Positions 61,654 through 62,211 of a stretch of DNA of 64,000 nucleotides are shown here, in pieces. The notes beneath the pieces were generated by a model, which saw only the letters and a program-made list of their open reading frames with translations, was not told the origin of the DNA and made no database searches. Source of the DNA: Escherichia phage LinBro; the sequence record OR896830.1. One strand, given 5' to 3'. How positions within the stretch are numbered: position 1 is the stretch's first letter; each line of letters starts with the position of its first letter. The position numbers and the translations under genes were made by a program.

Positions 61654-62211
61654 ATGAGATATTTGAAGTATGCTTCATGGATTTTCCTAGCTTTGTTAGA
61701 CCCATTGGCAGCAACCTTAGCAGTTATCTTAGCACCTTTTGTAGTTCCATTCTATAGTGAGAAGAAAGGGCATCTACCTTTTGGATTCAGATGGATGGAG
61801 ACATATGACAACCCTATTGATGGTGATGAAGGTCACATTAAAAGATGGGCTAAGATTAGAAAGATTGGCAAGCTCGGTGTTTATATGCAGAGAGTTGGAT
61901 GGCTCTGGAGAAACAAAGCTTATAACTTCTCTTACCATGTATTAGGAAGAGATGTAAAAGATGTTACTAAGTGGAAAGGTAATATCAACGTAAGTTCTGA
62001 CCCTGAAGATAATCAGACAGGTTATCTCCTAATGTGGAACAACAATGCTTGGGGATTATTCGCTTTTATTCCGTCAATTAAAATCTTTGGTAAACAGTTT
62101 TACTGGAGAATTTATGTTGGATGGAAACTAAAAAGTGTTGTCCCAGAAGAAAGAGCATTCTCAAGGGAAAGAGTTATGTTGGCATTCTTTATTCATCCAC
62201 TGAGAAAGTAA
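61654..62211 (+). CDS. hypothetical protein, hydrophobic N-terminus, Trp-rich
   Basis: 185-aa ORF with AAGAGG-type RBS embedded in the tRNA cluster. Confidence 0.45.
   Translation: MRYLKYASWIFLALLDPLAATLAVILAPFVVPFYSEKKGHLPFGFRWMETYDNPIDGDEGHIKRWAKIRKIGKLGVYMQRVGWLWRNKAYNFSYHVLGRDVKDVTKWKGNINVSSDPEDNQTGYLLMWNNNAWGLFAFIPSIKIFGKQFYWRIYVGWKLKSVVPEERAFSRERVMLAFFIHPLRK

Follow-up and report, generated by a model that had tools for sequence, protein, structure and literature searches.

The 64-kb stretch of DNA from Escherichia phage LinBro that was analysed here (OR896830.1), referred to below as the window, is of Felixounavirus type and contains an array of 26 transfer RNA (tRNA) genes, called by ARAGORN, that extends from position 58665 to 63571 entirely on the + strand. 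The subject of this analysis is a protein-coding gene of the family DUF7338 that is embedded in this array, between tRNA-Arg(ACG) and tRNA-Gln(TTG) (Table 1). An earlier note on this DNA, made from the sequence alone, had placed an open reading frame (ORF) of 185 amino acids (aa) at exactly this position and had credited it with a good ribosome-binding site and a hydrophobic N terminus. All three descriptions are borne out: the flanking tRNAs are called by ARAGORN, a Shine-Dalgarno sequence precedes the start codon, and the hydrophobic N terminus is visible both in the Kyte-Doolittle profile (residues 6–36) and as a helix of residues 2–33 in an AlphaFold2 model.

The LinBro protein is matched over almost its entire length by the Pfam family DUF7338 (PF24027; E = 3.8e-62, 209.6 bits against a cutoff of 27, with residues 1–184 on positions 1–176 of the 180-position model) and by PHROG 2143, a profile of "unknown function" (E = 4.6e-81, residues 1–185 on positions 1–183 of 186), and the statement of the earlier note that no motif is recognised is thus superseded. 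NCBIfam gives no match to the LinBro protein, and a literature search on the name DUF7338 found no publication. The gene is already known, being annotated and belonging to a curated family without an experimentally assigned function. Its product is 100% identical to gp41 of Escherichia phage momo (momo_41, QHR67216.1, "hypothetical protein"), 97.8% identical to bas63_0153 of phage Bas63 (JohannRWettstein), and 94–99% identical to its counterparts across Felixounavirus, Felix O1 included (tblastn). Comparison with 14 Felixounavirus orthologs gives a ratio of nonsynonymous to synonymous substitution rates (dN/dS) of 0.04–0.10 at dS of 0.23–0.33. The gene is real, conserved, and under strong purifying selection, and the coding signature for which the earlier note had looked to relatives is present.

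The DUF7338 protein was found by tblastn in 556 of 50,697 phage records, and an exhaustive HMMER scan of 1.84 billion cluster representatives yielded 245 clusters at E ≤ 0.001, with most of the best 150 of the 245 representatives having lengths of 160–210 aa. Only six loci were found among 185,579 bacterial and archaeal species genomes, a rarity that is suggestive, since a single narrow peptide pattern was used; one of the six evidently stems from a T4-like phage contig that contaminates its assembly. DUF7338 is, in essence, a family of phages. Wherever a host can be identified, it is a diderm bacterium, save for one Felix O1-like record that bears the name of a Listeria phage. In that record, OK283618.1 ("Listeria phage LPML1"; 87,038 bp, a Felixounavirus-like size), the protein is 85% identical to that of LinBro; the host assignment looks doubtful, and the record is suspected to be mis-assigned. 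On a 178,077-bp contig of T4-like size assigned to "Flagellimonas marina" (NZ_JBHSCL010000010.1, locus L100), the DUF7338 gene is preceded by the sequence that precedes it in Slopekvirus, and this contig probably represents phage contamination of a Flavobacteriia assembly. In one further protein, P0034 (172 aa, on a contig of 1,161 bp), the first half of DUF7338 is fused to the C-terminal domain of a Gp53-like tail fibre (PF21882, E = 4.1e-17); P0034 is a probable assembly, frameshift, or chimera artefact and was not used as a domain-fusion clue. Tail-fibre genes with the same PF21882 domain adjoin DUF7338 in locus L007.

The family has a uniform architecture of ~170–200 aa, comprising an N-terminal hydrophobic helix and three polar motifs, to which the LinBro protein conforms. 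An alignment of 30 sequences, 31–82% identical to the LinBro protein, contains 17 invariant columns. Two of these, W9 and P28, are in the hydrophobic helix, and the others (T50, D52, G57, W83, W85, R86, N87, Y90, G98, G109, G123, R152, G156, W157, and K158) are in the following domain, where the conserved motifs are T50-x-D52-N-x-x-x-G57-[DE], W83-L-W85-R86-N87-x-x-Y90, and G156-W157-K158. An acidic residue (Asp or Glu) is found at position 16, in the middle of the helix, in 28 of the 30 members. The segment preceding the helix has a charge of +1 to +5, and the 26 residues following it have a charge of −1 to −6 in 28 of the 30 members and of 0 in the other two, a distribution from which the positive-inside rule predicts an N-in/C-out topology with a periplasmic domain. 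The domain is rich in Trp, and its net charge is mostly +6 to +17 across the 30 members.

With this alignment as input, AlphaFold2 returned a model with a mean predicted local distance difference test score (pLDDT) of 95 and a predicted template modelling score (pTM) of 0.85. In the model, the N-terminal helix is followed by several short helices (residues 43–96) and a five-stranded sheet (residues 106–184). A Foldseek search of the PDB identified no fold relative (best E = 0.47) and no likeness to an RNA-binding fold, a sequence-profile search of the PDB gave nothing meaningful, and among the viral models of BFVD only uncharacterised DUF7338 members were retrieved, with no named viral protein. 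The fold is confidently modelled and apparently novel. The remote-homology searches and structure prediction that the earlier note had suggested supplied DUF7338, PHROG 2143, and a confident model; no relative from the PDB or among named viral proteins emerged.

The architecture and the genomic contexts described below suggest that the DUF7338 protein may be a lysis-associated type II inner-membrane factor that faces the periplasm, with an architecture like that of the T4 holin T and an unrelated fold, and that it is possibly the missing holin of Felix O1. We regard this proposal as plausible, falling somewhat short of probable. The flank charges that predict an N-in/C-out topology, the linkage to endolysin genes, the positions of the gene in Aeromonas phage phiAS5 and in the late operon of a lambdoid phage, the late promoters of Dhakavirus, and the diderm hosts would all count in its favour.

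The phiAS5 genome provides the strongest single argument for a holin-type role. In the T4-type reference layout, represented by WG01, the holin gene t is located between the distal tail-fibre genes and asiA. In phiAS5, the t slot contains ORF0116, a DUF7338 member (E = 5e-50), followed by ORF0117, the only annotated endolysin, and ORF0118, which matches phrog_1152, "Rz-like spanin" (E = 9.7e-13), a PHROG that also includes the putative spanin of LinBro. When the WG01 T holin was used as a tblastn query against the complete phiAS5 genome (225 kb), the best match had an E value of 3.7 and was within a tail-fibre gene, and no phiAS5 ORF of T-like architecture resembles T; the same query picks up T5-type holins at 23% identity. 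DUF7338 thus appears to fill the holin slot of a holin-endolysin-spanin-like cassette at the t locus, an argument that depends on the sensitivity of tblastn and on one genome.

Linkage to lysis genes recurs in distant relatives. In a context survey of ~27–30 lineages less than 75% identical to each other, drawn from GenBank phages, IMG/VR, metagenome contigs, and genomes, an endolysin gene is located within 1 kb of DUF7338 and on the same strand in at least nine independent lineages (Table 1). Weaker cases are L066 (GH19-like, borderline score), L102 (SLT-like), and L105 (YkuD-like). A rough binomial estimate for 10 of 27 lineages at a chance rate of 5–10% is 4e-7 to 2e-4, where both the lineage count and the chance rate are approximate. 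In the lambdoid locus L013, the DUF7338 start codon abuts the stop codon of the o-spanin gene, within the Q-dependent late lysis operon of a temperate phage. Four unrelated cassettes contain, besides DUF7338, a small ORF of 89–112 aa with one transmembrane domain (TMD) and a coiled coil; that of phiAS5 can be assigned clearly to the Rz-like spanins of phrog_1152, and the other three have weak or no PHROG matches.

Table 1. Coordinates of the DUF7338 gene and associated features in the LinBro window, and gene orders at loci where DUF7338 is linked to lysis genes.
Feature	Position	Strand	Description
DUF7338 coding sequence, 185 aa plus stop	61654..62211	+	ATG start; Felixounavirus member of DUF7338/phrog_2143 (momo_41, bas63_0153, CPT_Mushroom87)
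Shine-Dalgarno sequence AAGAGG	61640..61645	+	8 nucleotides (nt) 5' of ATG; read from sequence
Single hydrophobic helix, predicted signal-anchor type TMD, codons 6–36	61669..61761	+	Hydropathy, AlphaFold helix 2–33; contains D16 and P28
Basic Trp-rich alpha/beta domain, predicted periplasmic, codons 37–185	61762..62208	+	Alignment, AlphaFold model, flank charges
tRNA-Arg(ACG)	61559..61634	+	ARAGORN and Rfam; 19-nt spacer to DUF7338 start codon
tRNA-Gln(TTG)	62220..62295	+	ARAGORN and Rfam; 8-nt spacer from DUF7338 stop codon
Two candidate sigma-70-like promoter matches	58518..58638	+	At 58518 and 58609, just 5' of first tRNA; consensus matches
Third sigma-70-like match	60006..60034	+	Early in tRNA array; consensus match
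Terminator-like hairpin with T-run	63734..63751	+	3' of last tRNA (tRNA-Cys); candidate end of transcription unit
Endolysin, GH24 phage lysozyme	53657..54121	-	97% identical to annotated Mushroom endolysin; unlinked putative lysis partner
Rz-like i-spanin, phrog_1152	39634..39981	+	E = 1.1e-41; unlinked to DUF7338 gene
phiAS5 (L004)			DUF7338 - Phage_lysozyme - phrog_1152 spanin
L007			Tail fibre - 193 aa - DUF7338 - 96 aa - GH108 endolysin - ... - Rz
L013 (lambdoid)			Q ... holin_2 - lysozyme - i-spanin - o-spanin - DUF7338 (start abuts stop) - ... - terminase
L076 (15 loci)			DUF7338 - Phage_holin_4_1 - lysozyme - TMD/coiled-coil; Pfam-verified
L079			DUF7338 - GTA_holin_3TM - GH108; Pfam-verified
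L065			Tail fibres - DUF7338 - lysozyme - 84 aa - Rz-like; Pfam-verified
L070			Tail fibre - assembly protein - DUF7338 - 89 aa - SAR-type lysozyme; Pfam-verified
L073/L074			Tail fibres - DUF7338 - lysozyme
L062 (T4-like)			tRNAs - two ORFs - DUF7338 - three small ORFs - e-type lysozyme; all within 2 kb
TMD + coiled-coil ORF, L004	4941..5279
TMD + coiled-coil ORF, L007	2877..3167
TMD + coiled-coil ORF, L070	6583..6852
TMD + coiled-coil ORF, L102	5534..5824

The holins that occur together with DUF7338 belong to four unrelated families: T, Phage_holin_2, Phage_holin_4_1, and GTA_holin_3TM. The presence of canonical holins beside DUF7338 in L013, L076, and L079, and of T in T4-like phages, would fit an antiholin or lysis-timing regulator, an RI-like protein whose membrane-tethered periplasmic domain binds the real holin, with the true holin being another small membrane protein. 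Similar to T4 RI, DUF7338 combines an N-terminal membrane tether with a globular domain that is predicted to be periplasmic, and it is associated with lysis genes; at ~185 residues, it is about twice the size of RI. Other holin candidates are present in the window, and Felixounaviruses carry rIIA/rIIB (PMC4837284). In contrast to these points, no similarity to RI was detected, no named viral protein matches the model, and phiAS5 has no recognisable holin beside DUF7338 and no detectable T. Moreover, a single highly conserved domain would be unlikely to bind four unrelated holin families specifically, an association that is known as co-occurrence only. The diversity of the co-resident holins therefore favours a protein that acts autonomously on a conserved host target and counts against an antiholin specific to one holin, and we consider a regulatory role of the RI kind quite unlikely.

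A holin assignment for this gene is not new. Several GenBank records name it "holin" on the basis of topology only; one is that of Salmonella phage Mushroom (gp87), where the Center for Phage Technology labelled the product a class-III holin oriented N-in/C-out (PMC4392139). No holin-lysin cassette was recognised in the Felix O1 genome paper, which names other holin candidates (PMC3185647), and the UAB_Phi87 paper describes the Felix O1-type holin as still to be identified (PMC4837284). Literature searches found no expression or deletion data on holin activity of the DUF7338 protein.

Comparison with T4 holin T shows likeness in predicted architecture and difference in fold. The architecture predicted for DUF7338, with one TMD, an N-in/C-out topology, and a large periplasmic C-terminal domain, would match that of T, and the two proteins are similar in size (185 versus 217–218 aa); in T4-type and Felix-type phages alike the gene is unlinked to the endolysin gene, and in phiAS5, where no T is detected, DUF7338 is found at the t locus itself. 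The fold of DUF7338 is unrelated to that of T and apparently novel, and membership in the T family was rejected for lack of sequence, profile, or structural likeness: hhalign of DUF7338 against the WG01 T holin gave a probability of 0.3%, the best blastp match had an E value of 17, Pfam reports DUF7338 only, and no structural similarity was found between the DUF7338 domain and the solved holin T structure. In addition, T coexists with DUF7338 in T4-like phages, as in WG01 (with t in the order 37-38-t-asiA) and in Slopekvirus Toast_ER48. DUF7338 also shares with Rz-type i-spanins a type II inner-membrane topology, which for DUF7338 is predicted, and an occurrence in lysis cassettes of phages of diderm hosts. 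Unlike i-spanins, its periplasmic part is modelled as a compact alpha/beta domain rather than a coiled coil, and separate spanins are found in the same genomes (the window, L013, L007, and phiAS5); the protein thus does not qualify as an i-spanin, the phage having a phrog_1152 spanin of its own.

The LinBro window holds the same three families as the phiAS5 cassette, namely DUF7338, a lysozyme, and a phrog_1152 spanin, but they are dispersed. No T-like holin was found in the 64-kb window or in a 40-kb segment of Mushroom. A lipobox regular expression, a pattern that may be too strict, identified no embedded o-spanin frame in the two phrog_1152 genes.

Several observations weigh against a role in lysis. 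The LinBro endolysin gene is located 7.5 kb from the DUF7338 gene and on the opposite strand, and the spanin gene is likewise not linked to it. The window contains other holin candidates, small ORFs with one or two predicted TMDs at 24350–24556 (+), 27506–27846, and 34024–34200, of which the first encodes 68 aa with two TMDs and matches phrog_4532 (function not assigned). The candidate promoters of the DUF7338 gene in the window are sigma-70-like sites shared with the tRNAs, and these promoters, together with co-expression with the tRNAs, suggest early rather than late expression. Since T is also present in Dhakavirus and Slopekvirus, and canonical holins adjoin DUF7338 in the three loci named above, DUF7338 is not generally the sole holin. 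About half of the lineages have no recognisable lysis gene nearby (L005, L009, L012, L058, L075, L101, and L104), and the lysis-linked copies are often directly 3' of tail-fibre genes; part of the linkage signal could therefore reflect placement at the boundaries of late modules. The polar residues D52, R86, N87, Y90, R152, and K158 of the globular domain are invariant, and such conservation would be more in keeping with a site of ligand binding or catalysis than with a typical holin. Finally, in the PhageMaP preprint, an essentiality map of Bas63, lysis/membrane and tRNA genes are reported as mostly nonessential, and the text gives no value for bas63_0153.

The conservation of the domain and its placement could also be explained by an envelope-directed protein outside lysis proper, acting in superinfection exclusion, in protection of progeny, or as an enzyme on a periplasmic or lipid-linked host molecule, such as the lipopolysaccharide core, lipid II, or lipoprotein links, and encoded at late-module boundaries like a "moron". 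The invariant Asp, Arg, Asn, Tyr, and Lys residues, the many Trp residues, and the charge of +6 to +17 suggest an anionic ligand. DUF7338 directly follows tail-fibre or assembly genes in L004, L007, L064, L065, L070, L073/L074, L102, and L105, and this position, right behind such genes, is a classic site of exclusion genes. The expression with the tRNAs from sigma-70-like promoters that is proposed for LinBro, and the diderm nature of the identifiable hosts, would be compatible with such a function as well. However, the gene in the temperate locus L013 is juxtaposed to the spanin genes in a late operon and is not arranged for expression in a lysogen, and the family is conserved among phages that are strictly lytic and differ in their receptors (Felix O1-like, T4-like, and jumbo phages). 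Furthermore, searches of Pfam, PHROG, and NCBIfam matched no enzyme family, only DUF7338 and phrog_2143 (PADLOC was not searched). An envelope function apart from lysis thus seems unlikely.

The position of the gene within the tRNA array bears on how it is expressed in Felixounavirus. The DUF7338 gene is on the same strand as the flanking tRNAs, and the spacers on its two sides are too short for a promoter or terminator of its own; no promoter-like or terminator-like site is found within them. A weak promoter-like match (9/12) is located within the ORF at 61729–61758. The sigma-70-like matches of the window are matches to the consensus only, and their number equals the expectation from shuffled sequence. 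Given the lack of such sites in the spacers, the location of the candidate promoters before the first tRNA or early in the array, and the terminator-like hairpin beyond tRNA-Cys at its end, the only reasonable reading of the layout is that the DUF7338 gene would be co-transcribed with the tRNAs. In such a transcript, 3' processing of tRNA-Arg would set the 5' end of the DUF7338 mRNA, and cleavage by RNase P at the 5' end of tRNA-Gln would set its 3' end. The co-transcription that the earlier note had proposed therefore agrees with the layout as far as the tRNAs are concerned; the Y-RNA-like elements that it had included in the same transcript receive no support from Rfam.

Messenger RNAs that are co-transcribed with tRNAs and freed by tRNA processing are known from the E. 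coli thrU-tyrU-glyT-thrT-tufB operon and from small ORFs in the tRNA regions of T4 and T5. Similar to operons of the thrU-tyrU-glyT-thrT-tufB type, the LinBro protein gene is on the same strand as the tRNAs and separated from them by 19 and 8 nt. Unlike in those operons, the ORF is internal to the 26-tRNA array rather than at its end, and the processing of the LinBro transcript is predicted from the layout.

The position of the gene is conserved in relatives, as the earlier note had proposed to check: tRNA-Gln starts exactly 8 nt past the stop codon in 23 of 25 Felixounavirus-type loci, and in 13 of the same 25 a tRNA ends 18–19 nt before the start codon. tRNA-Arg(ACG) is present 5' of the ORF in the window and in momo; Bas63 and Mushroom lack it there, and the tRNA that precedes the ORF in these two phages is tRNA-Leu(CAA), with the same ~19-nt spacer. 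The tRNA content varies while the position of the DUF7338 ORF stays fixed. In the Mushroom record (KP143762, L093), the tRNAs are annotated on the strand opposite to the flanking coding sequences; in momo, Bas63, and the window they are on the same strand, and the Mushroom annotation is probably an error of the record.

A tRNA-linked role would require the basic domain to be cytoplasmic, in a membrane-tethered factor that binds RNA or processes or repairs tRNAs. The tRNA-embedded position recurs outside Felixounavirus: in Karamvirus (PG7-type), the DUF7338 gene is ~70 nt after tRNA-Phe, inside a 19-tRNA array; in L056, seven tRNAs are found within 1.5 kb of it; and in Dhakavirus and Slopekvirus, one to three tRNAs are ~1 kb 5' of it. 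The strongly basic character of the domain and the Ro60-like gene 5' of the LinBro array would also accord with an RNA-directed function. Nevertheless, all DUF7338 members of less than 50% identity are without nearby tRNAs and are linked to lysis or tail genes instead, the flank charges predict a periplasmic domain, and nothing in the model resembles an RNA-binding fold. The T4-type tRNA block, moreover, adjoins the region of the lysozyme gene e anyway, as indicated by the names trna.2-4 ... e.8, e.6 in WG01 and as seen in L062, where tRNAs, DUF7338, and e are found within 2 kb. Given also that tRNA arrays are plastic regions in T4 genomics, a function tied to the tRNAs appears highly improbable. 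The Felix-type and T4-type DUF7338 proteins are ~60% identical in phages that are otherwise distant, and the simplest reading is that the gene would have moved horizontally within plastic tRNA regions, without a tRNA-related function.

Evidence on the timing of expression in the T4-like relatives is mixed. The 60 nt 5' of the DUF7338 start codon were surveyed in L002, L003, L038–L056, and L100, and a GC-rich hairpin with a T-run was found just 5' of the gene in almost all T4-like loci, and in many cases the distance to the start codon is only 12–35 nt. Expression in these phages would therefore occur by read-through or from a late promoter squeezed between the hairpin and the gene. A perfect T4 late promoter is located at −34 in three Dhakavirus loci, and a near-perfect one, cATAAATA, is found in three Karamvirus loci; in Slopekvirus, there is no T4 late promoter and no room for one 5' of the start codon.

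Other features of the LinBro array concern its remaining genes and gaps. A second protein-coding gene in the array, at 62600/62663–63397 (+), corresponds to momo_40 and matches DUF7217 (E = 2.3e-87) and phrog_2114, with no assigned function; its listed GTG start at 62600 overlaps tRNA-Phe (62571–62646), and the ATG at 62663 is the likelier start. It was rejected as a co-travelling partner of DUF7338, the co-occurrence being limited to Felixounavirus loci. The gene directly 5' of the array, at 57084–58499 (+), corresponds to momo_43, annotated as "vWFA protein", and matches DUF7788 (E = 1.7e-43) and DUF2828 (E = 3.9e-29). In the PhageMaP preprint, its Bas63 ortholog, gp130, located just 5' of the tRNAs, is described as Ro60-like and is reported to counter Ppl, a defence system; the preprint further speculates that the Bas63 array includes Y RNAs among its tRNA-like genes. 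Gaps of 95–430 nt without a tRNA called by ARAGORN are found in the LinBro array at 59328–59756, 59991–60237, 60315–60552, 60643–60897, and 61305–61399, and these could hold structured RNAs. A scan of 57500–64000 with Rfam at E ≤ 0.1 identified no Y RNA and no other non-tRNA family above noise, with only sub-threshold tmRNA-like matches at 59933–60116 and 60048–60237. The Mushroom paper reports that Felix O1 encodes a tmRNA called by ARAGORN (PMC4392139).

The role in lysis that we favour can be described as follows. The short, positively charged N terminus of the DUF7338 protein would remain in the cytoplasm, one long TMD with a conserved Asp would span the inner membrane, and the conserved, basic, Trp-rich domain of ~150 aa would be exposed to the periplasm. 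In Felixounavirus, the gene would be transcribed within the tRNA operon, and its mRNA would be freed by tRNA-processing cuts on both sides. Working on its own at the cytoplasmic membrane during host lysis, the protein, with its T4-T-like "class III" architecture, would either cause membrane lesions or target the envelope rather than serve as a partner tied to one particular holin, and in Felix O1-type phages it is a candidate holin that would let the soluble endolysin reach the cell wall. A bolder version of this proposal, which as a whole we think rather unlikely, is that DUF7338 constitutes a new structural family of holin-type effectors for diderm hosts that is the missing holin of Felix O1 and has displaced T in situ in phiAS5-type phages, that its periplasmic domain recognises a component of the host envelope, and that in Felixounavirus its mRNA is made by tRNA-processing cuts from the 26-tRNA operon.

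As a genomic observation, a protein gene within a tRNA array is already annotated and unsurprising for large lytic phages. The tRNA-embedded DUF7338 gene would nonetheless offer a clean natural case of an mRNA bounded by tRNA processing sites. Felix O1 has served as a diagnostic and biocontrol phage for decades, and the comparative evidence makes the topology-based holin guess directly testable. If the holin role is true, the repertoire of holins and lysis proteins would gain a new structural class, and the widespread label "hypothetical protein" would be corrected in more than 500 phage genomes.

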